IMG/VR virus record: IMGVR_UViG_3300045988_174992
Strand: one strand, 5' to 3'
DNA: 64,000 bases
Origin: a virus
The position numbers and the translations under genes are program-made. Under the pieces are notes generated by a model, which was not told the DNA's origin, did no database searches, and saw only the letters and a program-made list of their open reading frames with translations. Within the stretch, counting starts at the first letter, position 1. The number at the start of each line of letters is the position of its first letter. Positions 10,326-62,341 of this stretch are shown here, in pieces.

Positions 10326-10766
10326 ATGAAAAGTTTAACTAACTATATTTGCGAAGCTATGAAGAAGAAATTCAATGGCTTCGCAATTCTCAAACCAGAA
10401 TTCTTGGATATCAAAGATGATTTTGAAGATATGTTAGAAGATGCTGGTTGGGATATAACTAACTATAAGACTATAAAGATGAACTTGGATGAAGCAAGAG
10501 AGCTTTATAAAGTACATGAAAAGGAAGATTTCTATGATGATCTTTGTCATTACATGAGTTCAGGTAACTGTATAGCTTACAAACTTTATAAAGATTGTAA
10601 AGACCCTATAAAAGACTTGAAGAAAGTAAAAGATGAAGTAAGAGACAAATATGGTAAAGATGATATGAAGAACTGCATGCATAGTTCTGATTCTAAAGAA
10701 AATGTGGAAAGAGAAGCAGATATCTGTTTCAAAATAAATAATGAACTAGACAAAGATGAAGATTAA
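10326..10766 (+). CDS. ndk: nucleoside diphosphate kinase-like protein with CTS-like N-terminus MKSLTNYICE
   Basis: FNGFAILKPEFL parallels NDK ERTFsIIKPnav. DEARELYKVHEKEDFYDDLCHYMSSGNCIAYKL parallels eqArgFYaeH.gkpFFdgLvefMtSGPivv. NCMHSSDSKENVEREADICF matches the active-site N..HgSDS...A.rEi..fF. Confidence 0.8.
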   Translation: MKSLTNYICEAMKKKFNGFAILKPEFLDIKDDFEDMLEDAGWDITNYKTIKMNLDEARELYKVHEKEDFYDDLCHYMSSGNCIAYKLYKDCKDPIKDLKKVKDEVRDKYGKDDMKNCMHSSDSKENVEREADICFKINNELDKDED

Positions 10767-14459: not shown

Positions 14460-14462
14460 ATC

Positions 14463-15006: not shown

Positions 15007-15017
15007 TAAATATAAGA

Positions 15018-17503: not shown

Positions 17504-17539
17504 ATAGAAAGAATTTAAATTACATTATTAAAATACTCT

Positions 17540-27970: not shown

Positions 27971-29002
27971 CTATCCTTTATCTTTTAAACGTTCAATTGC
28001 TTTCTTTGTTTCTTTATCAAGTGTTTTAGGAAATACCGGATTGACAACCATTGTATAATCATGTCCATCAATACCCTTTCCTTTTATTCTAAGTTTCTTA
28101 CCAACTTCAGAACATTCCGGAAGATTTATTCTCATCTTCTGATTACCAGGTAAATTGATTTCAATCTTACCTCCGAGCATTACATCCTTCCAATCAATAT
28201 CTTCTTTACCTTCTACATTACCATAATCATCAATATGATATTTATTATGGTCATAAGTATGTTGTACAGTAATGTAAAGTTCACCATTTGTTCCATTTAC
28301 AGATTTAGATTCAGAACCAAGTGGACCAACATCAATTCTGATACCATCTTTCAAAAGATATTCCAACGGAATTCTTGACAAGTCAATTTCTTCACTTACT
28401 AACTTGCCAATGAAACCAGTACCAGAACAAGCTGCACACTTATGTTCTACTGTCTTACCTTTACCATTACAATAAGGACATGGATGGCTAGATTGGAAGA
28501 ACATGTTTCCTTGTCGTCTAGATTCAGTCACCATACCACTACCGTTGCAATGTGAACAAACTTTAACACCAGTACCACCTACACCATCGCAAACATTACA
28601 TCTGAAGTCTTTCAAATATGCTACTGACTTAATACCTCTAAAATAGAAATCAGAAATATCAACATTCAATTTTCCTTCGCAATTCTTACCTCTCAAATCT
28701 CTATAATCTTCAGTATGCCAAGATGGTCCACTTGACCTATCATGTCCGAAGAAATCAGCAAATGGATTGAATCCACTACCGAAACCAGGATTGTCATATT
28801 CTTGCTTCTTTTGTGGATCTGACAAAGTTTCATAAGCTTCATTAGCAGATTTTACAATCTCTTCAGCTTCTTTCTTCTCCTTATCAGATTTGTTACCCAT
28901 TCTATCTGGATGATATTTGAGCATTATTTTCTTATATGCTCTTTTGATATCATCTTCTGATGCATCTCTAGATACACCTAAAATATCATAGTAATCTTTC
29001 AT
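27971..29002 (-). CDS. dnaJ: DnaJ (Hsp40) co-chaperone, type I
   Basis: J domain DYYDILGVSRDASEDDIKRAYKKIMLKYHPDR. Four CxxCxGxG zinc-finger repeats (CNVCDGVG, CSHCNGSG, CPYCNGKG, CAACSGTG). C-terminal substrate-binding region present. Confidence 0.9.
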   Translation of the reverse strand: MKDYYDILGVSRDASEDDIKRAYKKIMLKYHPDRMGNKSDKEKKEAEEIVKSANEAYETLSDPQKKQEYDNPGFGSGFNPFADFFGHDRSSGPSWHTEDYRDLRGKNCEGKLNVDISDFYFRGIKSVAYLKDFRCNVCDGVGGTGVKVCSHCNGSGMVTESRRQGNMFFQSSHPCPYCNGKGKTVEHKCAACSGTGFIGKLVSEEIDLSRIPLEYLLKDGIRIDVGPLGSESKSVNGTNGELYITVQHTYDHNKYHIDDYGNVEGKEDIDWKDVMLGGKIEINLPGNQKMRINLPECSEVGKKLRIKGKGIDGHDYTMVVNPVFPKTLDKETKKAIERLKDKG

Positions 29003-29025
29003 GTTATTTATTATCTATTCTTTGA

Positions 29026-29062
29026 CATGTTAAATATAGAAAATGGTCGATCAAATTTCATT
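29026..29062 (-). promoter_or_regulatory. promoter variant upstream of dnaJ (-33 box ATGAAAT instead of TTTGAAAT)
   Basis: Minus strand reads TTAATGAAATTTGATCGACCATTTTCTATATTTAACATG, 26 nt before the dnaJ ATG. The spacer arm CGACCATT pairs with AATGGTCG. Confidence 0.45.
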
Positions 29063-29102
29063 AATTCAACCGACCATTCAAATTGTTATTGATATAAATT
29101 AT

Positions 29103-31058
29103 TTATGCATCTTCAACTACAGCATCTTCTACTTTTACATCATCTGATTTTTCTTCTTTCTTATCATTGTCATGATTTGACGCATTCTCTTCCTTTGCAT
29201 TTCCTTCCTGTGTCTCTGTCTTATCAGTACCATCTTGGCTCTTTTGCTTATCGGCATAGAATTTCTCAACTATTGGGTTCCAAACTTCTTCCAACTCTTT
29301 CTTAGCTTCCATGATCTTATCATGGTCTTTGTCCTTCAATACAACAACTGATTCCAATGCATCAAGTTTTTCTTGTGCTTTAGCTCTATCCTCATCTGAT
29401 GTAGCTTTGACAAAATCTTCATTGACAATCATCTCTTTTGTATTGAACATGTAACGTTCTGCATCATTGATGTCATTAGTTTCTTTTGTCTTCTTTTCAT
29501 CAGCTTCCTTGAACTTCTCAGCATCTTCCTTGATTGCTTTGATTTCCTCATCAGTAAGTGTATTGTTACTGATTGTAATGTGCTGTTCTTTATTAGTACC
29601 AAGATCCTTAGCAGTAACAGTAACGATACCATTTGCATCAATATCAAAGCAAACTTCAATCTGTGGTACCCCAGCTTTTGCCATAGGAATTCCATCCAAT
29701 CTGAATCTACCAATAGACTTATTACCAGAAGCAATCTTACGTTCACCTTGCAATACATTTACCTCAACCATAGGTTGGTTATCAATAGATGTGGTGAATA
29801 CTTGCTTCTTCTGACATGGAATTGTTGTATTTGCTTCAACAATAGGTGCCATCATATCTCCCTTAGTTTCAATACCTAATGACAATGGAGTAACATCAAG
29901 AAGCAACAAATCACCAGTAGAATTACCAGCAAGAATATCAGCTTGCTTAGCAGCACCTAATGCAACTGCTTCATCTGGATTTACAGATTGATTCAATGGC
30001 TTATTGAATTCCTTCTTCAATGCCTCTTGCAATGATGGAATACGAGTTGTACCACCTACAAGTAAGATACAATCAATATCATCATACTTCTTACCAGCTT
30101 TCTCAACAGCAACCTTTGCTTTTTCAACTGTGCGATCATTCAAATTCTTTACAAGAGATTCAAACTTAGCACGAGAAAGTGTCATAGCAAGATTCAATGG
30201 TGCACCATCTTTCATAGAAATATATGGAAGATTAATCTCTGTCTGTGTTGAACTTGACAATTCAATCTTTGCTTTTTCTGCAGATTCTACTACACGAGCA
30301 TAAGCCATATTATCCTTTGTCAAATCAACATCATCTGACTTCTTAAATTCATCAACTACCCACTTTACAATAGCATCATCATAGTCTTTACCTCCAAGAT
30401 ATACATCACCATTTGATGCAAGTACTTCAGCCATACCATCTGACAACTCAAGGACAGAAACATCAACAGTACCAGTACCTGAATCCACTACTACAACAGT
30501 CTTGTCTTTCTTGTCTTCCATCAAGTTAGCTGCCAATGCTGCTGATGTTGGTTCATTAATCACACGAAGTACATTCAATCCAGCAAGCTCACCAGCTGTC
30601 TTAGTTGCTGTACGAGCAGCATCACCAAACCAAGCTGGTACTGTAATTACTGCATCTTTGATTTCCTCACCAACAAAATCTTCAGCAATTTTTTTCATCT
30701 TACCAACAATCATAGATGAAATCTGTTCTGGAGAATATTCCTTATCATCAATCTTAACATAAGGCTTACCAGACTTATTTACAATATCATAAGTTGCAAG
30801 CTTTTGCATCTTCTTTACATTTTCATCATTGAAATCAGCACCCATCAAACGCTTTACAAAACTGATAGTGTTCTTTGGATTTGTTACCATTGCACGCTTT
30901 GCGGCATTACCAATCTTCACTTCATCCTTTGTAATCTGTACTACAGATGGTGTTGTTCTTGTTCCTTCTTCATTTACTACTACAACTGGTTTACCTGCCT
31001 CAATTACTGCTACACACGACATACCCGTGCCTAGATCTAGGCCTAAAACTTTACTCAT
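29103..31058 (-). CDS. dnaK: DnaK (Hsp70) chaperone
   Basis: 651 aa. GLDLGTGMSCVAV, DAVITVPAWF, VIDSGTGTVDVS-type and LVGGTTRIPS motifs. A substrate-binding domain and acidic C-terminus are present. Confidence 0.95.
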   Translation of the reverse strand: MSKVLGLDLGTGMSCVAVIEAGKPVVVVNEEGTRTTPSVVQITKDEVKIGNAAKRAMVTNPKNTISFVKRLMGADFNDENVKKMQKLATYDIVNKSGKPYVKIDDKEYSPEQISSMIVGKMKKIAEDFVGEEIKDAVITVPAWFGDAARTATKTAGELAGLNVLRVINEPTSAALAANLMEDKKDKTVVVVDSGTGTVDVSVLELSDGMAEVLASNGDVYLGGKDYDDAIVKWVVDEFKKSDDVDLTKDNMAYARVVESAEKAKIELSSSTQTEINLPYISMKDGAPLNLAMTLSRAKFESLVKNLNDRTVEKAKVAVEKAGKKYDDIDCILLVGGTTRIPSLQEALKKEFNKPLNQSVNPDEAVALGAAKQADILAGNSTGDLLLLDVTPLSLGIETKGDMMAPIVEANTTIPCQKKQVFTTSIDNQPMVEVNVLQGERKIASGNKSIGRFRLDGIPMAKAGVPQIEVCFDIDANGIVTVTAKDLGTNKEQHITISNNTLTDEEIKAIKEDAEKFKEADEKKTKETNDINDAERYMFNTKEMIVNEDFVKATSDEDRAKAQEKLDALESVVVLKDKDHDKIMEAKKELEEVWNPIVEKFYADKQKSQDGTDKTETQEGNAKEENASNHDNDKKEEKSDDVKVEDAVVEDA

Positions 31059-35957: not shown

Positions 35958-36563
35958 TTACTTTATAAATTCTGAATCATCTATAGTACATATCTTATTC
36001 TCTTTAAATGATTTCTGTACATCTATGATTCTCTGATTAGTACTTCCTCTAAATGGTATTGTTATGTTTCTTTTTTCCTTTACATAAGGTCCATCAATTA
36101 TAACATCACAATTCTTAATTACTTCTTTATGAGGATAATTATTCAAATCTTCAATGAAATATCCCGTATAAAGCCAAATACTCTTTTCTGGATATCTCTT
36201 CTTTATATTAGAAAGAAACTTAGCAAGTTCTTCTAATGCTTGTACAGACTGATCTAATGGGTCACCGCCAGAAATTGTTACACCATCAATATGTTCATCA
36301 CCTATCAAATTCAATATCTTGTCTTTATAAGTGATGTTTGTATATGGTACCATATCATCTAACTTATGACCTTGAGCATATTTCCAAGTATGCTTATTCT
36401 GACAACCAGGACATGCATGTGTACATCCAGATACCCATATAGTTACTCTAAAACCAGGACCATTATTGATATCTGGACCAGTAACTGCTATGATATGTAA
36501 GCCGTTAGACTTGTCTATGTGCAAGTTGTTAGACTTGTCTATATGTAAATCTTTTGTTTCCAT
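35958..36563 (-). CDS. nrdG: anaerobic ribonucleotide reductase activating protein (radical SAM)
   Basis: GPGFRVTIWVSGCTHACPGCQNKHTW (NrdG-type C.x3.C.x2.C cluster). SGGDPL motif. Sits immediately downstream of nrdD. Confidence 0.85.
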   Translation of the reverse strand: METKDLHIDKSNNLHIDKSNGLHIIAVTGPDINNGPGFRVTIWVSGCTHACPGCQNKHTWKYAQGHKLDDMVPYTNITYKDKILNLIGDEHIDGVTISGGDPLDQSVQALEELAKFLSNIKKRYPEKSIWLYTGYFIEDLNNYPHKEVIKNCDVIIDGPYVKEKRNITIPFRGSTNQRIIDVQKSFKENKICTIDDSEFIK

Positions 36564-36612
36564 ATTTATAATATAGAATCAGGATGAACTTAAGTTCACC
36601 CTGATTTGATTT

Positions 36613-37656
36613 TTAAATTAGATTTTGTTCTACATGCTTTAATCGTTTAGAAACTTCATCTTGTTTACCTTCATTCATATTGGAAACATCAGTACTAAGG
36701 TAACCAGTGACCATTCTTAGTTCCTCTATGTTATGGCTTCCACAATGTGGGCATGTTCCATTGAAATCACCTTTGCTATGACAATCTCGGCAGTAATCCA
36801 GTGGAAAATGCAAAGAGAAATATGGAAGATCCTTATCCATTGCATAAACCACTAATTCTTCACAAGCATCTATATTGTTAGTTGCTGAACTTGGCATTTC
36901 AACATAAGTGATGCATCCAGCATTACTGAACTTATCTAATTCACTTTCAATATCAATTTTCTTGAAGCAATCAATATCTTTATATACAGGTACATGAGTT
37001 GAATTTGTAAAGAATTTGTTATCATTATCAGTAACACCTTTAACATCATTACCATATTGTGCTCTGAATTTTGTCATTGCTGTCTTACAAAGTGATTCTC
37101 CTGGAGTCAAATATACTCCAAAATTCAACTTATCATTTTTCTTGAATTCTGCACATCTGTCATTGAATAGCTTTTCAATTCTCTTTCCAAGTTCAAGTCC
37201 TTGAGCTTCTGTCTGGTCACACCCAATCAATATTTGCAATGTTTCTGCTAATCCAATTTGTCCGATAGCTAATGTACCATGTTTCATAGCAGATACAGGA
37301 CCTTCTTCATGGATATATCCTACCATTGTATTGTTTGTCCACATGAATGGAGCAGACTTAGAATTCTGGCTGCAAATCAAAGTAAATCTTTCAAGAAGCA
37401 TTTCTCTTGCTTCATGGATCTTCTTATCAAGCAACTTCATGAATGTTTCTACTACATCTTTGCTACCAGATTCTTTTGCCATCATAGCTAAAGTAGGCAT
37501 AATGATAGTAACAGGGCAAATGTTTCCACGACCATCTTTTTGGTTTGCAGATAACATCCAATTGTCTTGTACTTTACCAGTTTCTGCTATCTTTTTAAAT
37601 ATTTCAAAGAAATAATTTGAATCACAATTGATATCATAACCATTATAAGTTCTACA
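36613..37656 (-). CDS. nrdD: anaerobic ribonucleoside-triphosphate reductase, exon 2
   Basis: Begins CRTYNGYD... after the intron. C-terminal Zn site CRDCHSKGDFNGTCPHCGS and glycyl-radical motif RMVTGYLS. Confidence 0.85.
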   Translation of the reverse strand, partial: CRTYNGYDINCDSNYFFEIFKKIAETGKVQDNWMLSANQKDGRGNICPVTIIMPTLAMMAKESGSKDVVETFMKLLDKKIHEAREMLLERFTLICSQNSKSAPFMWTNNTMVGYIHEEGPVSAMKHGTLAIGQIGLAETLQILIGCDQTEAQGLELGKRIEKLFNDRCAEFKKNDKLNFGVYLTPGESLCKTAMTKFRAQYGNDVKGVTDNDNKFFTNSTHVPVYKDIDCFKKIDIESELDKFSNAGCITYVEMPSSATNNIDACEELVVYAMDKDLPYFSLHFPLDYCRDCHSKGDFNGTCPHCGSHNIEELRMVTGYLSTDVSNMNEGKQDEVSKRLKHVEQNLI

Positions 37657-37953
37657 CATCTTATCTGTTATTACTAACAGGACTGACTATATGTTCCTTA
37701 TTATATAAATTGTATTTTCTATATATTAAGGCCTCACGCTCCGAATTGGTGCTTATCTCCAATTCTACTCCCTTACACTCATCAGGGATAGTCGATACAC
37801 CTTTATGACAATTAAAATTGTCAATTTAGCACGGATCTCATCCATCTATTATAAATGGACCTAACCGTTAGCAGCAGCTTATTTATTTTCTTATGCTGCC
37901 ACACCCATTAAGCATGGTTCGAGAGGTTTTAGATGGGCTGTAGTATTGCACTT
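37657..37953 (-). ncRNA. group I self-splicing intron (297 nt, no ORF) in nrdD
   Basis: Exon 1 ends ATGGGT (U at the splice site). The internal guide GCCCAT (37933-37938) pairs with exon AUGGGU, giving the U.G pair. The intron ends ...GATAAGATG with a terminal G. Joining gives VMSTMG-CRTYNGYD, matching the conserved NrdD ..PMGCR.. motif. Many hairpins are present, including the GNRA-capped CUGUUA-GUAA-UAACAG (37665-37680). Confidence 0.8.
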
Positions 37954-39408
37954 ACCCATCGTGCTCATCACTTCATATCTAGTGAATTTCTCTGCTGGTT
38001 TTACTTTAATTTCCCAACTATCTTCAATAGAGTCATAATGACCTTCTAATGACAAATAATCTTCATAATCTGGATGTTCTGACAACCATTTAGCAAATGC
38101 ACAGTATGTTGATTTGGAGAAATTGAGCAAATTCTTCAATGCACGATTCTTTTGCTCTCTATCAAATATATTACCTTTCCAGTTAGTACTCCAATCAACA
38201 TTACAATAATTAGGATAATCACGTTGTGTTGTAGATTTCAATGCTAATCTGAACAAATCATAGTTAGGACCAGGATTATTTTTAGAGCCATGAATTTCTT
38301 TACTGTATTGGAATATGCAACATGGGAATATAGCAGTACGATGATACTTACCAGTACCTTCCAATGTCATATTGATTAATGCTCTAATTATTTCACGACC
38401 TTCCTTTAAAGTACATGTACCATAATTGATGCTAGAAAATGGCAGCTGGGCACCACTACGAGATTGCAAACTATTTAGATTATGACTCATTGCTTCAGTA
38501 GCTTGACTTAATTCCTTCAATGTAGAATTCCAAGCCTTCTTCCATATCATTTTCTTCAATGGTTTCAACAATCCAACACCGGTATAAATTCTATCATCAA
38601 CACTTATATGTTTGATTGATTTAGGATCAATGTTAGGTTTAGCCCACTTCATCAATGGAATTCCATCACACCAGTTTTTGTAATGCTTAAAGAAACTCTT
38701 ACGGAAATATGGTATCATTGACCAATCAAGATGTGATGCAGAAATACCACCAAACTGTTCAAGTGATTGTACTTGGAAATTTACAGCTATCAATTGGAAT
38801 GCCGTACTTAATGAATTAGCAGGACGAATATCACACTGTTTCAATGTAATACCATGTTCAAGAAGAATATCAATCGGATCAGTTAAACAATTATGCTGTC
38901 CAACTGCAAAATTTGATAAATCATGCTGATAAACCATATTTCCTTCATGATTCTTTCTTGCCATCTTCGACATGTTGTTTTTCAAAGCATAATCTTTACA
39001 AACAACTGCTCCAGCTTCACCAATACGGCCACTAAAGCTGTTTTCATCAAGATTGGCATTCTGGTTTACTACATTCTTGGCATAAAGTTTTGTAGCAATA
39101 TTCTTAGCAAGCTTTGTATTTGATTCTCGATACCTAGATCTCTCTTCTCGGTAAATGATGAATTGTTCTGCTGCTTCATTCTCTCCTACCGACATGAGGA
39201 AATCTCTCAAGAAATCTTGTACAGTCTCAATATCAACTACATCTTCTTTCATAGTTTCTAACCAAGCTCTTATTGATTCTGTAAACTTACTAATTAGTCC
39301 ATCAGGAACTTCTTTCTTCACTCCATTCTTATATACTTTTTCAAGTGCATGAATTGGTTTGTTAAGATCAAAGCCTTGGACTTTACCATCTCTTTTCTTT
39401 ACTTTCAT
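37954..39408 (-). CDS. nrdD: anaerobic ribonucleoside-triphosphate reductase, exon 1 (ATP-cone plus core)
   Basis: N-terminal ATP-cone-like MKVKKRDGKVQGFDLNKP. The track ORF reads 20 codons into the intron before a stop. Confidence 0.85.
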
Positions 39409-51744: not shown

Positions 51745-52875
51745 TTACTTCTCTGTTGTAACAATTCGATTCAAATCAAGGTTATCAGGAGAGAACTTAT
51801 TTACAGGACCAGCACCAATAGTCTTAATTTTTGATGCATCAACACCTGCCTTGATAAGTGCATTCTTAACTGCTACTGCTCGCTTAAGTGAAAGCTCTTT
51901 ATTATATCTAGTAGAACCTTCAGTAGAAGCATATCCAGTTACCTTAATAGTACCATCAACATCTTTCAATGCATCAGCGATATCATAGATATTTGCCATA
52001 GATGTTGATTCAATCTTAGCAGTACCCTTCTTAAACTGAACCTTTGGATAAACCATCTTAGTAACTTCATTAGTCTCAATCAAAGTATTTGTCTTTGTAA
52101 GAGAATCATGCATTACCTCAATAGTTGCATTAGCATCATTAAGACTCTTCTGAAGTGTATTGATCTTTCCATTCAACATATCAACCTCTGCCTGATCATA
52201 AAGCTTAGCCTTGTTGAAAAATCGAGTGCCGTTACTTGTCTTGAAGTGATATACAATACCAGCAGTAACTTGTCCAATAGCACGTTCTGTATTGAATGAA
52301 CCTGTACCACTCAAATCATATACAACTGCTGGTCGCAAAGCAATAGTCCATGCATCTGTTACATTATAATTCAGATTAAGACCAGCCTTAACAAGCAAAG
52401 CATTGTACTCATTATGTAAAAGGAAACCGTAACCAGGACCTGCATTAGCTTCTACTTCAAACTTACGTGGCTTACCATTATACTTCCAAATAGCATTAGT
52501 AAGATTTACACGACCTGTCAAATAAGTTGAAATTCCATCAAATGTATTTGCACAATGAAAATGCGTTACCGGTTTTGACCAATTACTAAGTCCATTGATA
52601 TTTGTATTACCCTCAAGTGTTACACCAAATACTGGAGTAATCTCCTTATTGATAACAATACCGGCTACAGCACCCTGTGGCCAATTCCACTGATTGAGAT
52701 TAGTCTCAACACCACCAACTACACCAGCAGAAACATTGTCTGTGAACTTAGAACTACCGGAATAGTTAGACTGTGTCTGAGCATTAACACTAAATACTGC
52801 TGTCAAAGCCAGCAACATTGTCAAAATAAACTTCTTCATTTTTCTTTTAATTTTACTTTTTAAATTATTAAACAT
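51745..52875 (-). CDS. OmpA-family outer-membrane protein (beta-barrel plus OmpA C-terminal domain); likely true start at 52839
   Basis: Signal peptide MKKFILTMLLALTAVFSVNAQ. Gly/aromatic-rich beta-strand region. The C-terminal FKKGTAKIES...VTGYASTEGSTRYNKELSLKRAVAVKNALIKAGV matches the OmpA-like peptidoglycan-binding domain. Confidence 0.85.
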   Translation of the reverse strand: MFNNLKSKIKRKMKKFILTMLLALTAVFSVNAQTQSNYSGSSKFTDNVSAGVVGGVETNLNQWNWPQGAVAGIVINKEITPVFGVTLEGNTNINGLSNWSKPVTHFHCANTFDGISTYLTGRVNLTNAIWKYNGKPRKFEVEANAGPGYGFLLHNEYNALLVKAGLNLNYNVTDAWTIALRPAVVYDLSGTGSFNTERAIGQVTAGIVYHFKTSNGTRFFNKAKLYDQAEVDMLNGKINTLQKSLNDANATIEVMHDSLTKTNTLIETNEVTKMVYPKVQFKKGTAKIESTSMANIYDIADALKDVDGTIKVTGYASTEGSTRYNKELSLKRAVAVKNALIKAGVDASKIKTIGAGPVNKFSPDNLDLNRIVTTEK

Positions 52876-53395: not shown

Positions 53396-53995
53396 CTAAA
53401 TGGCATTATCATGCTCTAATTTCCATTTAGGTGTTTCTTCAATAAATGTTGACACAAAATCATCTAATATATCTTCTGGTGTATCTGTATTGTCAATCAA
53501 CTTTACAATATCATCAGATTTCTTATATTCATTGAATAAACTTAAAATATTATCAATTTCCTTTTCTGTAAAATCTTGATTTTCTTTCAACAAATTTACT
53601 CGATCTTTATACTCTTCTGGATTTCTCCAAAGCATAATGTAATTAGTCAATTTGAAGTTTGCTTCAATTTCTCTACCAAAATACTTTTCTACCACATGTT
53701 CACGATCAAATAAATCTGCAAATACATTATCAGTAAGCAAAAGACGATCCATTACAATTGGTCTATCAGTACCATTCAACTTTGCCATTGTATATAAGTC
53801 ATCAAGTACTTTACGAATTGTTTTTCTAATCCACTCTTCAAATTTTTGTGGATTTTTATAATCTACTCTTTCTTTTTCTGCTGATACTGGATTATATACT
53901 AAAAAATCATCAAATCTATTCTTCAAATTTTCTAATAATGTTCCTTTGCCAGTCCTATCACAACCCTCAAGAACTATAATGCGAATTTTTTCCAT
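53396..53995 (-). CDS. thymidylate-kinase-fold (d)NMP kinase
   Basis: P-loop IIVLEGCDRTGKGTLLENL parallels TMK IViEGleGaGKtT. IVMDRLLLTDNVF parallels TMK vigDRh.lStqAY. Confidence 0.6.
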   Translation of the reverse strand: MEKIRIIVLEGCDRTGKGTLLENLKNRFDDFLVYNPVSAEKERVDYKNPQKFEEWIRKTIRKVLDDLYTMAKLNGTDRPIVMDRLLLTDNVFADLFDREHVVEKYFGREIEANFKLTNYIMLWRNPEEYKDRVNLLKENQDFTEKEIDNILSLFNEYKKSDDIVKLIDNTDTPEDILDDFVSTFIEETPKWKLEHDNAI

Positions 53996-54120
53996 TTTTA
54001 TTTACAAACATAAATGTATTTATTACCATCAGTAGATGATTGATATTTATATTCAGGAATATGTGTTTTATTTTCTATCCACTTCATGTTTAATCAGTTT
54101 AAATATATTTTATATATAAA

Positions 54121-55350
54121 TTAGAATTTTGGCATATATTTTTCATACTTTTCAAATACAAATCTACGTTGTCTTTGAACAATCTCTCTATATAATGGTT
54201 CATTATTTTCTACTTTCTTAAGCTTATCAGCATAATCTTGTCCATTCTTACAATATGTATGTTCATATAACCAATCATCACACAATTCATGATTTGGATC
54301 AAAAGCTTCATCTACAAAACATACAATATCCATAAGCATCAAATCAAACCACCTTGGAGATATCTGATTACCTAATATACATTTGTTATGTGTTATCAAC
54401 GAAGACTTAGCATTTGATGGAACAAATTCCAACAAATCACGATAAGGCATATTTTTTACAAGCTCAATATCATGGTCAAAATCTATATGTTTAAAGAAAT
54501 TCTTATTACCTCCTTTAATTACTAAAAATGGTTTGTCAACTTTACTGTAAAATTCTTCTGTTCTAGCTATTCTATCTGAATCTTTAATATATCCATAATA
54601 GCAAGCAGAATACTTCTTATCATCAAAATCATAATTTCTCATTCTCAAATCCAAATCATCATTTAATGTGATGTAATAGTAAACATTAAAATTGAACCAA
54701 GACTTTGGCAATATCTTTATTCTATTCTCTTTAACATATTTATCATAATCTAATCCACAAAATGCTAAATCAAAATCATTTTCTATATTGCATATATCAT
54801 CATATCTAGATTCTAATAAAGATATTTCGTTTGCATAATTGTTTTCATTTATTCCATGGTTCCATGATGTTTTTAAATCTTTCTTTATAGCATGGCGATA
54901 AGTATGATGTCTAAAAAACCAAAGATTATATACTTCTGGATCATCATTAATGAATATAATTTTGTCATTTTGACCTTTTGATTTCCACCATTCATATATT
55001 CTATTCATACAAAATGGAAATGTCATAATAGCCATACCACCAAAATTATTTGTTTGAGCAGGAACAACCCACATATCATTTATATGATAATCTAGTAGCA
55101 AGTCTTTCTTTTCAATTCCATATATCAATGGACAATCTTTCAGTATGTTATTATATTTTTCACCGGAATTAGACAATGATGTTGCTAAAACATATACTTT
55201 ATCATATTTCAAAAACTCCGTCAAATATTTCCAATAATGATATACATTATACATTGTAATGTTATCTCTATTCACAAGTATATGTCTTACTGGTAATGTT
55301 ATACATGCTATTCTGCCCTTTCCATTAGGTTCTTCTATATGTTTAATCAT
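54121..55350 (-). CDS. T4 beta-glucosyltransferase-like (BGT-like) DNA glycosyltransferase candidate
   Basis: Three collinear blocks resemble T4 BGT as I recall it. DMWVVPAQTNNFGGM parallels DRLIVVNSSINFFGGK. SACYYGYIKDSDRIARTEEF parallels DVIYGGSFRSGQRESKMVEF. ISPRWFDLMLMDIVCFVDEAFDPNHEL parallels ITLRVWETMASDAVMLIDEEFDTKHRI. Confidence 0.55.
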   Translation of the reverse strand: MIKHIEEPNGKGRIACITLPVRHILVNRDNITMYNVYHYWKYLTEFLKYDKVYVLATSLSNSGEKYNNILKDCPLIYGIEKKDLLLDYHINDMWVVPAQTNNFGGMAIMTFPFCMNRIYEWWKSKGQNDKIIFINDDPEVYNLWFFRHHTYRHAIKKDLKTSWNHGINENNYANEISLLESRYDDICNIENDFDLAFCGLDYDKYVKENRIKILPKSWFNFNVYYYITLNDDLDLRMRNYDFDDKKYSACYYGYIKDSDRIARTEEFYSKVDKPFLVIKGGNKNFFKHIDFDHDIELVKNMPYRDLLEFVPSNAKSSLITHNKCILGNQISPRWFDLMLMDIVCFVDEAFDPNHELCDDWLYEHTYCKNGQDYADKLKKVENNEPLYREIVQRQRRFVFEKYEKYMPKF

Positions 55351-55406
55351 AAAATACTGTATCTCAACTTATTTCTAAGTTAAAAATACAGTATTAATTT
55401 TATGAT

Positions 55407-56000
55407 TTACTTATAGATTTCAAGTTCATCTTTATCCATCAGCATTAGTTGATATAATATATCTGCAAATCCTCCATGTCCACCTTGATATTTAGAAACA
55501 TAGTGAAAAAATTGCTTTATATATTCAAAGCAATTATCTGTAGTAGCACATATATTTGCTTTTGATGCGGCATTCAAATCACTTGGACTATCACCAATAA
55601 AAGCAACAATGTATCCAGCATCTCTGCATTTCCTAACCATTTCTTCTCTTTCTTTTGAATTTGCATTTGTAGCATGTAACATGAAAGAATTACTTATTCT
55701 TCTATCTGTAATATTACCTCCAGTCTTATCATCTGTTACGAATAAGAATTCCCATCCAAGATCCTTAGCAATATTAAATAATTCCTTATCATGGCAACCA
55801 TAAGTCTTGAATCGTTTTCTGTTTTCATCATAAGTCATATTTCCATCTGTCAATATGCCATCACAATCAGAAATTATGATTTTCTTCATATTGATATATT
55901 CTAAGGTATGCTTGGACTTAAAATAATCAGCCCAAGTCAAACCTTCTTTCAATATTATTCTTGATGTTTTGAATTTACTTTTTTCCATTAGTACATTCAT
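55407..56000 (-). CDS. KdsC-like HAD-IIIA sugar-phosphate phosphatase
   Basis: IIISDCDGILTDG parallels KdsC DvDGvlTDG. FIGDSPSDLNAA parallels yiGDD..Dl. C-terminal GGHGGFADIL parallels GG.GavRE. The start is uncertain (56000, 55988 or 55889). Confidence 0.65.
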   Translation of the reverse strand: MNVLMEKSKFKTSRIILKEGLTWADYFKSKHTLEYINMKKIIISDCDGILTDGNMTYDENRKRFKTYGCHDKELFNIAKDLGWEFLFVTDDKTGGNITDRRISNSFMLHATNANSKEREEMVRKCRDAGYIVAFIGDSPSDLNAASKANICATTDNCFEYIKQFFHYVSKYQGGHGGFADILYQLMLMDKDELEIYK

Positions 56001-57447
56001 TAATTATATTAGACAATCCAGAAATAGCATACTCAAATACAATATTCAATTTCATAATATCTTTTGCAAAGATTGGAAGCATACTAAGCAAATGAAGATA
56101 AATAGCTGTTTCAATAAACACATCACAATCTTCTATTTTTGGAAGTTCATCTACTTTATATGTCATTTCCTTTCTCAAAGCATCATCCAATCCAATCTCT
56201 ACCATATAAGCTTCTGATTGGTCAACAATTGGATGACAGAAAAATGATCCATTTCTTCTTGATATTGGATTATACAGTTTAATATCTCCAGTCATATTTA
56301 CAAGAACATTATGCGAATTGATGTTTCCATGAGTCAGTACCCATTCATCATTCGCTAAACCATCTATGAGAATATCACATGCATTATCTATAAGTGTTTG
56401 AATTTCTGCAAATGTTATGTTATTTTCAAAAAGCCTACGTGTATCACAAATTCCCTTCAATGGTTTACCATTATATTCTTCTAACAGAAATTTTACTGAA
56501 TATGACAATGGCACATCTACTTTATATCTTACAAAATCATTTAAAAGATTGGTAAGATTTATCTTTGATGCATGTGTATATCCTTCAAGATTATGCATAT
56601 CACAAGCATATCCATCTTCTGTCTTACTTACTGGCATATCTACAACATAATCACTAATTCCAGGATTATAAGATAAGAAAGAAGTCCAATCATACTGATA
56701 GTTCAAATGCTCATTTGTTTTTGATACGTATTGCATAGATTCTTTATCAGTATATGAAACCTCCATATCAGTAGGTAAAACCAAATCTTTCTGATAAGAA
56801 GTTGACATGATCTTCTTATATTCTGATAATGACTTATATTCAGTTATTTTTGTATTGATATTTGATTCAACAAAAGTAATCATACCATCATTTACTTTTT
56901 CTTGAATAATATCAATCAAATCTTTATTTTCATCACATGGCTTAGTTGGAATAACCTCTGAAATATCTTTGATCCAAAAAATACCTGGAACATTTCCATC
57001 ATAAGCAAATGATCTGTTTACAATCTTACCATCTTCTATATTATATCGATATTTTGCATCATTTACAGTAAAAATCACACAATTGTCTTTATCTTCAATT
57101 TTTCTATCCAATTTGAATTCATCATTATCAAACAAAATATCTGACCAGAAAAACAAAACATTCTTCTTTGGAAGCCAATCATATACAGAAGCTAAAGTAT
57201 TGCCTGAACCATTAGTATTGTTTGATACAATCACATCAACATTAAGATGATTGATTTCAATATAAGCTTTCATGATATTTGCAAACTTTTTATTTACAAC
57301 AATACTTATTGTATTTGCTTCATCAAAATAATCTAATTGCTTAATCAAAATTGGTGTTCCATCTTTTGATGGTAACAATATTTTAGGAAAACAAGAAAGT
57401 TCATTAAATCTGGTCTGTAATCCACCAGCTACTATTACAACATTCAT
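55975..57447 (-). CDS. bifunctional sugar-phosphate nucleotidyltransferase / kinase (LicC/LicA-like architecture)
   Basis: N-terminal VVIVAGGLQTRF parallels the NTP-transferase AGG.GTRl motif. C-terminal LTHGNINSHNVLV...DIKLYNP parallels the APH/choline-kinase H.D....N catalytic loop. Confidence 0.6.
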   Translation of the reverse strand: MNVVIVAGGLQTRFNELSCFPKILLPSKDGTPILIKQLDYFDEANTISIVVNKKFANIMKAYIEINHLNVDVIVSNNTNGSGNTLASVYDWLPKKNVLFFWSDILFDNDEFKLDRKIEDKDNCVIFTVNDAKYRYNIEDGKIVNRSFAYDGNVPGIFWIKDISEVIPTKPCDENKDLIDIIQEKVNDGMITFVESNINTKITEYKSLSEYKKIMSTSYQKDLVLPTDMEVSYTDKESMQYVSKTNEHLNYQYDWTSFLSYNPGISDYVVDMPVSKTEDGYACDMHNLEGYTHASKINLTNLLNDFVRYKVDVPLSYSVKFLLEEYNGKPLKGICDTRRLFENNITFAEIQTLIDNACDILIDGLANDEWVLTHGNINSHNVLVNMTGDIKLYNPISRRNGSFFCHPIVDQSEAYMVEIGLDDALRKEMTYKVDELPKIEDCDVFIETAIYLHLLSMLPIFAKDIMKLNIVFEYAISGLSNIINECTNGKK

Positions 57448-57459
57448 ATTTTATCTTTT

Positions 57460-58572
57460 TTATAAATTATTAATATTAATATAGAAACATCTATCACATG
57501 ATTTCATATTATATGAATTCATATCATATTGTTCCTTTGTTATGGCAAATTGACATCTTGCTTTTGGTGACATCATTTCCCATAAAGTTGCATGATTTAT
57601 GAAGTCTAAATCTTCAAAATAAGGAACAACCACATATTCTGATGACAACATAGTGAAATGTGTATTTCTATCAGTTGGTAATTTGATGAAAACAACATTT
57701 GAATTGAATTTCTTTTTCAAATCTTCCATAGCACCACTGTTGTTTGGATCTGTATAATACACAATAACTACATCGGCATAGTCATAATTGATATATGAAA
57801 TGACATCATCCACTTTATACCCTTCATCAGTCAATCTATAAGGAATATAATAAATAGAATAAGTACCTGTATCAAGACTATTAACTGTTTTAATAGTATC
57901 TTTCAATCCAAAATCTGTCATATAATCAAAATATTTCAGATTACGGTCAACCATCATATAATAAGGGTATATTGAACAATTTGGTAATGAAAATTTCTTT
58001 AATTGTGTTGGACTTTCTACAATTGACCAATCAGAAAGTTGAAACAATTTAGTATTCAAAATGTCATATCCCTCTAAGAAATTTCTTGTATGTTCATTAT
58101 CAATCTTACAAACTGGGCACCAGAAAACCTTTTCAAGTCTTCTAAACCAATATTGATCGCACAATAGATTTCCTAAGAATTGACTTTCAAATATTACAAT
58201 ATTAAAATCATTACCATTATCTGGATTGTTTATAAGTTCAAACAATTCCATTTCCATCTTACCCACAACATCATAATCACTTCTTTGTTCACCTGCATGC
58301 TTACCAAAATTATCTGACCAAATGATTTTAATGTTATCATTGTCTTTTATCCAACTATCAACAATATCATGTGATTCATTATTTTTTGGAAGCAATATTG
58401 TTAAACTTTTGAAATTCTTATGATGTTCAAAAAATGTAATGAAACGTACTACATTTCCATCACTATCTAAATTATACTTATTAGTCTCTCTATTAATAGA
58501 AGATATAATAGGTATGTACAAGATATTCTTATCTTGCATGTGATCGTCTACAAATTTCTTATCTATTGTCAT
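57460..58572 (-). CDS. putative second glycosyltransferase (weak BGT-like C-terminal motif)
   Basis: The ATG at 58572 (MTIDKKF...) overlaps the upstream stop by 14 nt; the track start is a GTG. DFINHATLWEMMSPKA weakly parallels BGT NFITLRVWETMASDA. Confidence 0.35.
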   Translation of the reverse strand: MTIDKKFVDDHMQDKNILYIPIISSINRETNKYNLDSDGNVVRFITFFEHHKNFKSLTILLPKNNESHDIVDSWIKDNDNIKIIWSDNFGKHAGEQRSDYDVVGKMEMELFELINNPDNGNDFNIVIFESQFLGNLLCDQYWFRRLEKVFWCPVCKIDNEHTRNFLEGYDILNTKLFQLSDWSIVESPTQLKKFSLPNCSIYPYYMMVDRNLKYFDYMTDFGLKDTIKTVNSLDTGTYSIYYIPYRLTDEGYKVDDVISYINYDYADVVIVYYTDPNNSGAMEDLKKKFNSNVVFIKLPTDRNTHFTMLSSEYVVVPYFEDLDFINHATLWEMMSPKARCQFAITKEQYDMNSYNMKSCDRCFYININNL

Positions 58573-58882
58573 GATCCTTTTCTTGCAATTTACATGATAC
58601 TTCATGAATAATATTGAATATGCTATCAATAAGATAGTCAAATTCTTCTTTATATTCACTACAAAGCCTTGAACCTTCTAATTGCTTATGTACATTTTTC
58701 ATTACATGATTCCATCTGTCTGGTTGTACAATAGGTTCACATGCTTTCTTCTTAACTCTTCCTATCAATATAGCATTATTCATTCTAGAAATCAAGAGGT
58801 TAACCAATGATCGGTCACCTCTTGTAATTTCTGCTCTACATGATTTGAGAAGTTTCAAATCCGAGTTAGTTATGTTAGTCAT
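58559..58882 (-). CDS. hypothetical protein (107 aa from ATG 58882)
   Basis: MTNITNSDLK... starts 8 nt inside the end of the U32-like gene. The longer track ORF (to 59014) lies within that gene. Confidence 0.5.
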   Translation of the reverse strand: MTNITNSDLKLLKSCRAEITRGDRSLVNLLISRMNNAILIGRVKKKACEPIVQPDRWNHVMKNVHKQLEGSRLCSEYKEEFDYLIDSIFNIIHEVSCKLQEKDHDNR

Positions 58883-60020
58883 ACAAATTATGTTCTTTAG
58901 CAAATTGTTCACAATAACGACAAGAATAACCACATTCATGGTTTTCACATTCCCATCCATTTCCATCCATCCACTTATTGATGAATCCATCAAGTTTCTT
59001 ATTTGGAATATCAATATCTGTTTTAGACTTCAATTCTGTCTTACCATCATAAATCGAGGAAAGAGGTTTCCATAATCCGAGAAGATTTCCATCATAAGTT
59101 TCTGACATATAAGCATTCATTATATATTCAAGATACTCAGTTGTTCCTGTTCTTCCTGATAACTTAAAATAATTTACTCCTGTTTTTTCTCGATAAATTT
59201 TCTGATCCTCTGGTCTAATCCATCGCATTCTTAGCCAAGCTTCTGGAGTAGATGAACGTGCAGACATACAATAACCCATTGGATAATTATTGTAAGACAT
59301 ACTATCCTCTTTTGTTTTGTTACATGCATGACAAAGATAACAAGAATCTCTGAATACACAATGAGTAGCATAATGATTTCCATTTGCATCTACTCCGGCA
59401 ACACCACAAAATTCATTTGCCATACATTCTAATATGCAACCATTTCTATCACAATAATCTTGTGCTTTAATCAAAAATTCCTTATTACGATTCTTAAGAA
59501 TTGAATTACAGAACTTATTTACTCCAAATGTTTCATGATAATACTTCAACTGGGTTACAGTATCAATATGAGAAATACATGACATCTCAATTTCAATATC
59601 CGATACTTCTCTAATAAAAAGCAACATCATTGGATTTGCCACAGTAATACGTACTACACCAATATTTTCAAGCCATTTTACAAGATCCTGAATATCCTTC
59701 TTATGATTCAACATCTCTATCTTTGAACCATAAGGTTGAATTGAATTCATTGTATAGTTGAATGCAATATTGTTATTCTTCAACTTCTTTACATAATTTG
59801 CAAAGAATTCTTTATCAATATCTGGCAATCTCCAACCTGGTCTTGCAGTTACTGCTTCATTACTTGCATCAGATCCAAAAAATTCTACAATCTGTGACTT
59901 ACCCTTATATTTCTTATTCAACTCTACAGCAACATCAATCAATTTAGGATCGAAATTACAACCTACTTTATAAAAGTTCATGTTCTTGTTACTGTAATCA
60001 AAATTAGGTTTCCAACTCAT
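58875..60020 (-). CDS. peptidase-U32-family (PrtC/RlhA/TrhP/UbiU-like) Cys-rich protein
   Basis: TIM-barrel-like N-terminal layout typical of U32 proteins (..VEFFGS..ARPGWR.., IAFNYTMN, IGVVRITVANP). Cys cluster CDRNGCILECMANEFCGV...HCVFRDSCYLCHAC sits at the position of the U32 Fe-S/signature region. Confidence 0.5.
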   Translation of the reverse strand: MSWKPNFDYSNKNMNFYKVGCNFDPKLIDVAVELNKKYKGKSQIVEFFGSDASNEAVTARPGWRLPDIDKEFFANYVKKLKNNNIAFNYTMNSIQPYGSKIEMLNHKKDIQDLVKWLENIGVVRITVANPMMLLFIREVSDIEIEMSCISHIDTVTQLKYYHETFGVNKFCNSILKNRNKEFLIKAQDYCDRNGCILECMANEFCGVAGVDANGNHYATHCVFRDSCYLCHACNKTKEDSMSYNNYPMGYCMSARSSTPEAWLRMRWIRPEDQKIYREKTGVNYFKLSGRTGTTEYLEYIMNAYMSETYDGNLLGLWKPLSSIYDGKTELKSKTDIDIPNKKLDGFINKWMDGNGWECENHECGYSCRYCEQFAKEHNLYD

Positions 60021-60050: not shown

Positions 60051-60089
60051 TAATGATAATATAGTAATTAGACTAAAACAGGTTCAAAC
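60051..60089 (-). promoter_or_regulatory. host-type promoter of the U32-to-kinase operon, overlapping a terminator hairpin
   Basis: Minus strand reads GTTTGAACCTGTTTTAGTCTAATTACTATATTATCATTA. The 10-bp inverted repeat AACAGGTTCA / TGAACCTGTT is at 60077-60086 / 60097-60106. Confidence 0.5.
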
Positions 60090-61238: not shown

Positions 61239-61273
61239 TATTTTTACATATATAAGATTTATTCAATTTGAAA

Positions 61274-62341
61274 ATGAAGTACAATGGAACAAACTACATT
61301 ACTGAACTGAAATCTATAGAATATATAGTAGAGAAGAACAGTAACAGTAAAGTAGAAAATCATACACAATTTACTAAGCTTAAGAAAGTAGAAAGAATAA
61401 TATTGATAGGTGAACTTTACTTGAATTCAGTAAAGATGCTTAAGAGAGATAAGATAAAAGTAGAATATGCAGATCCAACTAAGCTCAATTTTTCTTTCAA
61501 AGATGATAAGGTACATATATACAGTGGAGAGAAAGATTTACCTGATATAGTACTTACTAAAGCAGATTCTAAGAATACCATAGTATTGATGCGTAGTGGA
61601 TATACTAAGGAAGTGATAGCAGCTTTACTTGATGCCATCCAAGAATTAGATATACTGATATTGAACAACCAAGAAGCAGTAGCTATGTCATCTGACAAAT
61701 ATGCAACTGCATGTTTCTTGACAAAATCAGAACTTCCACAGCCAAAGTATGTACTTGCAACTTCTAGTGATATAGATAAAGAAGATCATAAGAAGCTAGA
61801 TGAAAAGCTAAAGCAACTCTATGGTAAGCTGGATGACGAATTAAAGTATGTTTGCAAGATATTGAATGGTCATGGTGGTAAAGGTGTATTTTGCTGTCGC
61901 GGAAAAAACATTGTATCTATATTGCAATGTTTGTTCAAACTGAAAGAAAACTGCCCTATACTCATACAAGACTTTCAAGAAATAAAAGATGGTGATATCA
62001 GAGCTCATGTACTTACATTGAATGGAAAGCAAAAGATATTGTCTTCTATCATGAGAAAGAAGGGAAAGGATTTCCGAACTAATCTCAGTCTTGGGTGTGA
62101 TATGGAAGATAATTACAAGATGACTCCAGAACAAGAAAAACTAGCTTTAGATGCTGCTAAAGCATCTGGATTGGAATGGTGTGGTGTAGATATGCTGCCA
62201 TTACAGAATGGAAATACTATAATAGTAGAATTGAATGGTGCACCAGGACCAAGTTCACCTATCAATGATCCTAACATAGAAGAAAATAATTTTAAGTTCT
62301 TCGAAAAGCTAGTAGAAGCTATAAATGAACTTTGTAAATAA
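61274..62341 (+). CDS. RimK-like ATP-grasp ligase 1
   Basis: The first ATG is 61274 (the track starts at a TTG). VCKILNGHGGKGVFCC, IQDFQE..DGDIRAHVL, RKKGKDFRTNLSLGC and WCGVDMLP...IIVELNGAPG match the RimK/ATP-grasp signature. Confidence 0.75.
   Translation: MKYNGTNYITELKSIEYIVEKNSNSKVENHTQFTKLKKVERIILIGELYLNSVKMLKRDKIKVEYADPTKLNFSFKDDKVHIYSGEKDLPDIVLTKADSKNTIVLMRSGYTKEVIAALLDAIQELDILILNNQEAVAMSSDKYATACFLTKSELPQPKYVLATSSDIDKEDHKKLDEKLKQLYGKLDDELKYVCKILNGHGGKGVFCCRGKNIVSILQCLFKLKENCPILIQDFQEIKDGDIRAHVLTLNGKQKILSSIMRKKGKDFRTNLSLGCDMEDNYKMTPEQEKLALDAAKASGLEWCGVDMLPLQNGNTIIVELNGAPGPSSPINDPNIEENNFKFFEKLVEAINELCK

Follow-up and report, generated by a model that had tools for sequence, protein, structure and literature searches.

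A candidate DNA hypermodification cluster with U32-family and chorismate mutase genes in a large human gut phage

The window analysed here is a 64,000-nucleotide stretch of the viral record IMGVR_UViG_3300045988_174992, which belongs to a phage genome of ~277 kb with ~30% G+C that recurs in human gut metagenomes, and the system in question is a gene cluster on its minus strand between positions 53396 and 60020. An initial annotation, made from the sequence alone, had described this cluster as a tightly packed candidate operon for DNA hypermodification. Seven minus-strand open reading frames (ORFs) were confirmed in it. Neighbouring ORFs overlap in three places, by 8 bp (U32/chorismate mutase), 14 bp (chorismate mutase/AraT1-like glycosyltransferase) and 14 bp (AfhE-like/HAD phosphatase), and the remaining intergenic gaps are 12, 56 and, at most, 125 bp. 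Listed from the upstream end, the genes are:

58875..60020, minus strand: U32-family protein, 381 amino acids (aa); proposed iron-sulfur (Fe-S), prephenate-dependent pyrimidine C5-hydroxylase (PF01136, phrog_5757, AlphaFold2 (AF2) fold)
58559..58882, minus strand: type II chorismate mutase (AroQ), 107 aa; would provide the U32 protein with prephenate (PF01817)
57460..58572, minus strand: AraT1-like DNA glycosyltransferase, 370 aa (hhalign of the family profile)
55975..57447, minus strand: AfhE-like sugar-1-phosphate nucleotidyltransferase with an APH-like kinase domain lacking both catalytic Asp residues, 490 aa
55407..55988, minus strand: KdsC/YrbI-type HAD sugar-phosphate phosphatase, 193 aa (NCBIfam and PDB matches)
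54121..55350, minus strand: divergent DNA glycosyltransferase of the T4 beta-glucosyltransferase family, 409 aa (phrog_7922, PF09198 relatives, 1bgt)
53396..53995, minus strand: nucleotide kinase of the TMK fold, 199 aa, homologous to the cluster kinases of the RB69 gp45 type (phrog_761, hhalign)

The start of the AraT1-like gene was placed at the ATG at 58572, giving 370 aa; the longest ORF begins with a GTG at 58659.

The products of this cluster suggest a DNA hypermodification in which a hydroxyl group is placed at C5 of a pyrimidine and then receives sugars, and in which the U32 protein and the chorismate mutase would act as an O2-independent, prephenate-dependent 5-hydroxylase; we rate this reading somewhat above an even prospect. 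The role in DNA proposed by the initial annotation is supported by a glycosyltransferase of the T4 beta-glucosyltransferase (BGT) family, a homolog of AraT1 and a conserved TMK-like kinase. Homologous clusters for arabinosylated 5-hydroxycytosine (ara-5hoC) were characterised in 2025-2026 in RB69, HY126, Serratia phage 92A1, Acinetobacter phage DLP3 and other Straboviridae (PMC13326640, citing He et al. 2026 and Mahler et al. 2025), and the pathway, which had been annotated as undescribed, is therefore not wholly so. In the ara-5hoC pathway, a flavin-bearing thymidylate synthase (TS) homolog uses O2 to convert dCMP to 5-hydroxy-dCMP (5hodCMP), kinases take the product to the triphosphate, and after replication arabinosyltransferases add arabinose that an isomerase, AfhE and a phosphatase have produced (PMC13326640). 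By homology, five gene families are common to the ara-5hoC clusters and the cluster in the window, namely U32, AraT1, AfhE, the TMK-like kinase and chorismate mutase. The U32 protein and the chorismate mutase probably take the role of the flavin- and O2-dependent TS-like 5hodCMP synthase, which would make this an anaerobe-adapted version of the ara-5hoC system.

Gene products of the cluster

The U32 assignment of the first gene was confirmed. The protein scored 24.2 bits against PF01136 (cut-off 22.4) and matched phrog_5757 (1.5e-111), and a Foldseek search with its AF2 model (pLDDT 88) returned the U32 protein 5d88 as the top PDB fold match by a wide margin (E 8.9e-9). This fold search was needed because searches of the PDB sequences with the single sequence and with a 29-sequence profile gave chance-level matches only. 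Alignment of the family with TrhP, RlhA, UbiU and UbiV of E. coli gave an hhalign probability of 87.7% (E 3.4e-6), and in this alignment, which is of moderate confidence and includes a loop insertion, E198, C221 and C227 of the phage protein fall on the essential E162, C170 and C177 of TrhP. These three residues are invariant in 29 gut-phage and three Straboviridae sequences, and nine cysteines (C171, C205, C221, C227, C251, C358, C363, C367 and C370) are invariant from the gut phages to Straboviridae; these are candidates for the four Cys that would bind an Fe-S cluster. The protein is 45-49% identical to the RB69 gp50-type proteins, which occur in 222 phage records (Straboviridae), and it matches the homolog in a characterised ara-5hoC cluster with an E-value of 7e-106.

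UbiU and UbiV are U32 proteins of anaerobic ubiquinone synthesis. The other two E. coli proteins act on RNA pyrimidines: RlhA is needed for C5 hydroxylation of C2501 in 23S rRNA and TrhP for that of U34 in tRNA, both hydroxylations require prephenate, the TrhP route is O2-independent, and RlhA additionally depends on Fe-S cluster biogenesis (PMC5727448, PMC6599085). Essential in the U32 motif are a Glu and two Cys, which are E162/C170/C177 in TrhP and E161/C169/C176 in RlhA (PMC5727448, PMC6599085).

The ORF of 107 aa, recognised in the initial annotation and left unnamed there, is assigned by its profile matches to the type II chorismate mutases. It matched PF01817 at 2.4e-13 with 50.6 bits (cut-off 27), and several NCBIfam chorismate mutase models matched as well. 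This identity, missed at first, is the key clue to the role of the U32 protein.

The protein encoded at 57460-58572 gave no match to any library when searched as a single sequence. Its family profile aligned over the full length with the Straboviridae AraT1 family, i.e., the RB69 gp46:47 homologs (hhalign 98.9%, E 1.4e-17, 282 columns), and tblastn with F48 gp098 found the gene at 1.2e-4; the initial annotation had called the protein glycosyltransferase-like. The RB69 gp46:47 family is predicted, without experimental confirmation, to be the first DNA arabinosyltransferase (PMC13326640).

The second glycosyltransferase, of 409 aa, had been called BGT-like, and the profile searches place it with T4 BGT. 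The single sequence matched phrog_7922 (1e-7) and PDB 1bgt (E 0.004). A profile built from 47 relatives, which were retrieved by an exhaustive search of 1.84 billion representatives, had T4 BGT as its sole PDB match (E 1.2e-59, residues 1-335 of 351), and PF09198 was matched by 27 of the 47. D137 and R333, which we take to be the equivalents of T4 BGT Asp100 and Arg269, are nearly invariant in the family. On this sequence evidence, the protein belongs with the T4 DNA beta-glucosyltransferases. Its AF2 model, made from a six-sequence alignment, was unusable (pLDDT 41), and no fold search was made from it.

The nucleotidyltransferase-kinase fusion proved to be a homolog of AfhE, with a kinase half lacking both catalytic aspartates. 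It matched phrog_4098 (2e-27), its N-terminus matched the nucleotidyltransferase PDB 6jq8, and the AfhE homolog of Thanatos aligned to residues 4-432 (4e-12), a span that covers both domains. AfhE itself is bifunctional, being an arabinose-5-phosphate kinase as well as a UDP-arabinose pyrophosphorylase (PMC13326640). In the kinase domain (residues ~373-394 of 490), all six sequences of the window lineage read HGN...N and YNP, whereas 13 homologs from other phages retain HGD...N and (I/V)DP; the catalytic-loop Asp and the metal-binding Asp are thus both Asn in this lineage, and the kinase domain is probably inactive. The next gene encodes the KdsC-like phosphatase that had been annotated, with matches to the NCBIfam models for KDN-9-P phosphatase (1.4e-15) and KdsC (1e-9) and to KdsC/YrbI entries of the PDB (E 3e-8 to 1e-4). 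No similarity was detectable between this KdsC-type HAD protein and the small Straboviridae HAD protein of the AfhF step. The assignment of the last gene to a TMK-fold kinase was also borne out: it matched phrog_761 (6.9e-10), its P-loop GCDRTGKGT is intact, and its family profile aligned with the Straboviridae cluster kinase (hhalign 96.8%, E 2.6e-10).

Related clusters and the distribution of the hydroxylases

Loci with U32 genes were collected from IMG/VR and metagenome assemblies and scanned with custom hidden Markov models (HMMs). The related loci outside Straboviridae, with a U32 identity of at least 53%, were the window lineage (L002-L009) together with L013-L015 and L018-L026. An AraT1-like transferase and a TMK-like kinase were found wherever the upstream flank was present, apart from L022, which gave no kinase match, and an AfhE homolog was found in every related locus except the minimal L006. 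Of the related gut-phage clusters, only L014, where the available locus stops within the cluster, showed no KdsC-type HAD gene; the HAD matches in L006 and L022 were weaker. As for the co-occurrence of BGT-like and U32 genes that the initial annotation had raised, U32 is present in every related cluster, but the BGT-family gene is confined to the window's own lineage. The minimal L006 cluster comprises U32, a fusion of DAHP synthase and chorismate mutase (DAHPS::CM), a glycosyltransferase, the TMK-like kinase and a HAD-like gene; it keeps U32 without sugar-activation genes, which points to a role of U32 on the base rather than on the sugar.

Some of these loci carry additional genes. In L004, a 407-aa ORF (12572-13795) with KYGVxN repeats and a Vsr/DUF559-like endonuclease C-terminus lies between the AraT1-like and AfhE-like genes and probably encodes a homing endonuclease. 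In L002-L005, L008 (~16606-17229) and L006 (14095-14709), the TMK-like kinase is directly followed by an additional HAD-like gene of 200 aa, which is absent in the window, L007 and L009.

The initial annotation had also proposed a private sugar-activation set. Its genes are present, but the case is weaker than claimed, with a kinase that is probably inactive and no isomerase. The tblastn and HMM scans of the loci showed that an arabinose-5-phosphate isomerase (SIS domain) is absent from the window and from L002-L009; the gene was found in L013-L015, L018, L019 and L021-L026 and also in 92A1, RB69 and Lazarus, while L020 is incomplete upstream. Arabinose-5-phosphate could come from the host. 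Alternatively, because the kinase domain is degenerate, the isomerase is missing and the BGT-family gene occurs only in this lineage, the sugar of the window lineage may no longer be arabinose, the route having decayed in favour of another NDP-sugar. In L015 (Logan SRR30769990_2119), dTDP-rhamnose genes (RmlA/B/C/D-like, 13642-16874) lie on the opposite strand beside the U32 cluster and hint at a different sugar decoration; the same locus encodes a dUTPase, a dCMP deaminase and a glycosyltransferase::SIS-isomerase fusion.

The genetic link between U32 and prephenate synthesis extends well beyond the window. Chorismate mutase follows U32, either directly or with one small ORF between, in Klebsiella phage F48, Serratia phage 92A1 and Shewanella phage Thanatos-2 (PF01817 E-values of 7e-10, 5e-10 and 8e-8, respectively). 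It lies at most 10 kb from U32, and mostly adjacent to it, in the window lineage, L006, L013-L015 and L018-L021, and in these gut relatives it is mostly fused to DAHP synthase. In L014 (ENA ERZ920188 scaffold_349, 9068-19311), DAHPS::CM adjoins U32, and genes for DHQ synthase, shikimate kinase, a DHQase::EPSP synthase fusion, chorismate synthase and shikimate dehydrogenase follow downstream, 3-9 kb away; as judged from these assignments, L014 encodes a complete phage-borne route to chorismate. The chorismate mutase occurs in 50 phage records, all of them Straboviridae of Enterobacterales or Shewanella hosts, and most of the 30 matches listed have its gene beside U32 or the TS homolog. A universal pairing of U32 with chorismate mutase was considered and dropped, the small ORF after U32 in RB69 (ORF049c) not being a chorismate mutase. 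This ORF (L117 7701-7940) resembles a 74-aa ORF of 92A1 (L016 10167-10391) at 31% identity, and a non-chorismate-mutase ORF of ~75 aa is thus conserved after U32 in the two phages.

Searches by tblastn and HMM found no TS-family gene in the window, its two 10-kb flanks and an extra 10 kb past one of them, which together (window, L009-L012 and L118) make up ~94 kb of the ~277-kb genome; they did detect the gene in each of the positive controls (F48, 92A1, Thanatos, RB69 and Lazarus). This result agrees with the initial annotation, which had seen no gp42-like hydroxymethylase in the window. A TS scan of IMG/VR with two patterns returned 80 loci, none of them on the target contigs, and was too insensitive to be more than a weak negative. 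Nor was a TS-type 5hodCMP synthase found near U32 in any of ~12 related gut-phage lineages. The signature of that synthase is L143E, D169N and N177D (PMC13326640); the TS homolog of phage F48 carries E143/N169/D177, and the sole thymidylate synthase in a related cluster, that of L013, has the canonical ThyA residues L143/D169/N177. The modified base is most likely cytosine rather than uracil, since the AraT1-like protein is homologous to a predicted 5hoC arabinosyltransferase and the canonical ThyA of L013 implies normal thymine.

The two kinds of hydroxylase gene are distributed differently among phages. Of the 376 phage records with the TS-type synthase, 57 are Acinetobacter and 22 are Rhizobium phages, which infect aerobes, whereas the 222 records with U32 have Enterobacterales or Shewanella hosts, which are facultative anaerobes, and Acinetobacter is absent among genera with at least three records. 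The cluster of Acinetobacter phage Lazarus has the order isomerase-AfhE-HAD-TS-AraT1-kinase-glycosyltransferase-glycosyltransferase; in RB69 the stretch bounded by isomerase and kinase is arranged alike, with U32 and a small ORF added between HAD and TS. In all Straboviridae examined, the TS homolog sits within the cluster. In the gut phages, U32 is present and no TS-type enzyme was found, either in the clusters or in the ~94 kb of the window genome. The O2-dependent and O2-independent hydroxylases of ubiquinone synthesis form such a pair, UbiH-I-F and UbiU-V. The pattern suggests that the distribution of the phage hydroxylases follows oxygen, mirroring the TrhO/TrhP and UbiH-I-F/UbiU-V pairs.

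Genome context, proposed pathway and alternatives

The same phage is present in ENA assemblies ERZ919512 (k127_125124, 276,731 bp) and ERZ28595965 (scaffold_4, 277,079 bp) and in IMG/VR contigs of 194-294 kb. The cluster had no megablast match among 50,697 phage records, and therefore no close sequenced relative was identified among them. Rfam and tRNA scans of the window gave no match. Two further features of the window bear on nucleotide metabolism:

10326..10766, plus strand: nucleoside diphosphate kinase (NDK), a context gene (PF00334 match for the identical gene in L012)
35958..39408, minus strand: anaerobic ribonucleotide reductase NrdD (ORFs 37891-39408 and 36613-37659) and NrdG (35958-36563) (ATP-cone/NRDD and Fer4_12/Radical_SAM Pfam matches)

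The NDK is a possible last step towards the modified dNTP, an involvement that is inferred only. NrdD and NrdG are consistent with replication under anoxia, without proving it. NrdD is split into ORFs of 505 and 348 aa that lie ~230 bp apart, with NrdG downstream, and no Rfam intron model was matched there. Within ~25 kb of the window start, just outside it, the genome encodes a protein of 243 aa whose C-terminal part is a dUTPase domain, a T4 gp1-like dNMP kinase (PF21448; ~13-15 kb beyond the window start) and a NUDIX hydrolase (L012 14695-19336 and L118 13844-14443). These three proteins are candidates for dCTP depletion and for phosphorylation of the modified dNMP. The further 10 kb outside the flanks encodes a neck protein, a papain-like protease, a NUDIX hydrolase and a helicase.

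The promoter that the initial annotation had placed at 60051-60089 was not confirmed. A sigma-70-like match of 9/12 is present there, yet such matches are no commoner in this AT-rich region than in shuffled sequences (67 observed vs 61 +/- 8 expected), and a hairpin terminating the upstream gene occupies the same spacer. The scan for sigma-70 promoters and terminators as a whole gave no informative signal.

Other genes of the neighbourhood are recorded here for completeness. An OmpA-family protein with a signal peptide is encoded just downstream of the cluster (51745-52875), and its gene is 96% identical to genes on contigs binned in 'uncultured Romboutsia' metagenome-assembled genomes. Romboutsia was considered as the host on this account and dropped: those contigs also encode phage BGT-like, TMK-like and HAD-like genes and are therefore regarded as mis-binned phage DNA, and the distant matches are to Bacteroidota. 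At 27971-31058 the phage has genes for an Hsp70/DnaK-like protein of 651 aa and for a DnaJ-like co-chaperone of 343 aa. Two RimK/glutathione-synthetase-like ATP-grasp genes are divergent from the cluster, at 61268-62341 and past the window end (L009 5930-8747), and one of them is fused to an NlpC/P60 domain.

In the proposed pathway, the chorismate mutase would convert host chorismate to prephenate, and the U32 Fe-S enzyme would use prephenate, not O2, for C5 hydroxylation, turning dCMP into 5-hydroxy-dCMP; cytosine already in DNA is a less likely substrate. The TMK-like kinase and/or the gp1-like dNMP kinase, and then the phage NDK, would take the product to the triphosphate for incorporation. 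In DNA, the AraT1-like glycosyltransferase would put a first sugar on the 5-hydroxyl and the BGT-family enzyme would add a second or alternative one, with the NDP-sugar provided by the nucleotidyltransferase domain and the KdsC-type phosphatase. For phage U32 proteins at large, we give an even chance to the proposition that they are O2-independent, prephenate-dependent 5-hydroxylases of dCMP or of DNA cytosine, serving as the sole route in gut-anaerobe phages and as a back-up (RB69 gp50) in phages of facultative anaerobes.

Several points weigh against a prephenate-dependent hydroxylation of DNA precursors. The base that is modified (C or U) and the sugar are both deduced, and the ~277-kb genome could encode a gp42-like hydroxymethylase or a TS-type hydroxylase beyond the ~94 kb that were scanned. 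The match to the cellular U32 proteins is moderate (87.7%), with the first Cys of the classical motif off its canonical spacing, and we know of no U32 enzyme shown to act on a deoxynucleotide or on DNA. L022-L026 and RB69 have U32 without a chorismate mutase nearby, so that the pairing is frequent and not obligatory; for these phages the hosts presumably supply prephenate. Direct catalysis by RlhA and TrhP was not yet reconstituted in the studies that described them (PMC5727448, PMC6599085). In addition, the Straboviridae TS homolog alone makes 5-hydroxy-dC (5hodC) in E. coli (PMC13326640), and since it suffices, U32 is not required aerobically in these phages.

Alternatively, the hydroxyl or hydroxymethyl handle may come, as it does in RB69 or T4, from a TS-family enzyme encoded in another part of the 277-kb genome, with U32 and chorismate mutase being an accessory or back-up module or doing something else; the cluster would then simply belong to the usual ara-5hoC or glucosyl-hmC type. 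Straboviridae hold both U32 and the TS homolog, a BGT-family enzyme would suit a 5-hydroxymethylcytosine acceptor, the TS scans covered ~94 kb, and the gp1-like dNMP kinase and dUTPase-like gene outside the cluster mean that pathway genes are dispersed in this genome. Nevertheless, we judge it unlikely: the ~94 kb held no TS-family match, the TS homolog lies inside the cluster in all Straboviridae examined, ~12 gut-phage lineages have the cluster without TS or with canonical ThyA only, and a phage that replicates in the anoxic gut would gain little from an O2- and flavin-dependent synthase. More doubtful still is an action of U32 on a sugar or another small molecule instead of the base, which would fit its location among sugar-activation genes in many clusters and the label 'sugar or heterocycle reductase' given to RB69 gp50 (PMC13326640 Table 1). 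Against this, L006 retains U32 and DAHPS::CM without the nucleotidyltransferase-kinase or the isomerase, chorismate mutase and the shikimate linkage have no known part in pentose activation, the Glu/Cys/Cys of the RNA pyrimidine hydroxylases is conserved in the phage proteins, and Acinetobacter phages of the Lazarus/DLP3 type have the same sugar-activation and transferase genes without U32, and DLP3 DNA contains arabinosylated 5hoC (PMC13326640).

Since the characterised nucleic-acid U32 enzymes all act on RNA, U32 and chorismate mutase might instead hydroxylate tRNA or rRNA, of host or phage, and be merely co-located with DNA glycosylation genes. This is very improbable in view of the synteny of U32 with DNA glycosyltransferases and nucleotide kinases, often in overlapping frames, in phages as distant as gut jumbo phages and Straboviridae, the lack of tRNA genes in the window by the tRNA scan, and the length of the phage protein, which at 381 aa is without the C-terminal regions of RlhA (653 aa) and TrhP (453 aa). 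Glycosylation of capsule, lipid or virion protein, which the initial annotation had kept as an alternative, has the lowest standing of all. KdsC-type phosphatases and sugar nucleotidyltransferases are typical of lipopolysaccharide and capsule pathways, and an OmpA-like gene lies downstream; yet both glycosyltransferases are related to DNA transferases, the only solved relative of the 409-aa family being T4 DNA beta-glucosyltransferase (E 1.2e-59) and the other enzyme being homologous to the AraT1 type, the predicted first DNA arabinosyltransferase (PMC13326640), and a nucleotide kinase is conserved in the cluster. Hydroxylation by U32 with prephenate, in which U32 stands in the position of gp42 as the initial annotation had suggested, is the best-supported reading.

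If this holds, the gene found in >200 sequenced T4-like phages (RB69 gp50) would have a function, and there would be a second, oxygen-independent enzymatic route to 5-hydroxycytosine in DNA, with the first U32 enzyme in DNA modification. Prephenate-dependent U32 chemistry would then extend from RNA and quinones to DNA precursors, and phage-borne chorismate mutase, DAHP synthase and the full shikimate pathway would be accounted for. Among large phages of the anoxic human gut, DNA with glycosylated hydroxy-pyrimidines is probably widespread, which bears on restriction and CRISPR evasion, on sequencing and assembly biases of the gut virome, and on phage therapy.

Comparison with known modification systems

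The closest known system is that of the ara-5hoC clusters, which likewise have an AraT1-type glycosyltransferase, an AfhE-type fusion, a TMK-like kinase and U32 (RB69 gp50). Chorismate mutase also occurs in Marfavirus, 92A1 and Thanatos, both systems encode a HAD phosphatase, and the logic is the same, i.e., a hydroxylated pyrimidine, a kinase and O-glycosylation of DNA with a phage-made NDP-sugar. The window cluster differs in that no TS-like 5hodCMP synthase was found, the isomerase is absent and the Asp residues of the AfhE kinase are lost. Its HAD phosphatase is KdsC-type, whereas that of Straboviridae is small and 1xpj-like; it adds a T4-BGT-family glycosyltransferase, and its carrier is a ~277-kb gut phage as opposed to T4-like phages of ~170 kb. 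In the description of the ara-5hoC clusters, the U32 homolog RB69 gp50 appears only in Table 1, chorismate mutase goes unmentioned, and the discussion points to two RNA pyrimidine hydroxylation pathways without 5hodCMP-synthase homologs and does not remark on the U32 relative in the cluster (PMC13326640). A full-text literature search, with He et al. 2026 outside its scope, returned no paper tying U32, prephenate or chorismate mutase to phage hydroxycytosine.

With RlhA, TrhP and UbiU-UbiV the phage protein shares the U32 fold, the Glu and two motif Cys, further conserved Cys and genetic coupling to prephenate synthesis, and the chemistry needed is O2-free pyrimidine C5 hydroxylation. It differs from these proteins in its identity of only ~16%, in its membership of a separate phage-specific subfamily (phrog_5757) and in its proposed substrate, a deoxynucleotide or DNA, which would be unprecedented for U32. 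It is also shorter than RlhA and TrhP, without DUF3656 or their C-terminal domains, and has a C-terminal CX4CX3CX2C of its own.

The glucosylated hydroxymethylcytosine system of T4 (gp42, gp1, gp56 and the alpha- and beta-glucosyltransferases) is alike in that the base is modified before replication, a dNMP kinase is used and glycosylation is post-replicative; the 409-aa protein belongs to the BGT family, and a gp1-like dNMP kinase is encoded nearby. In contrast to T4, no gp42 homolog was found here, the cluster has its own NDP-sugar genes, and the handle is probably -OH and not -CH2OH. Finally, the CmoX carboxymethylcytosine system of Synechococcus phage S-B43 (PMC12783734) is a phage cytosine C5 modification that also draws on prephenate, via carboxy-SAM (Cx-SAM). 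That system employs CmoA-/CmoB-like enzymes with carboxy-SAM, none of which are in this cluster, whereas here prephenate would be the co-substrate of the U32 enzyme.

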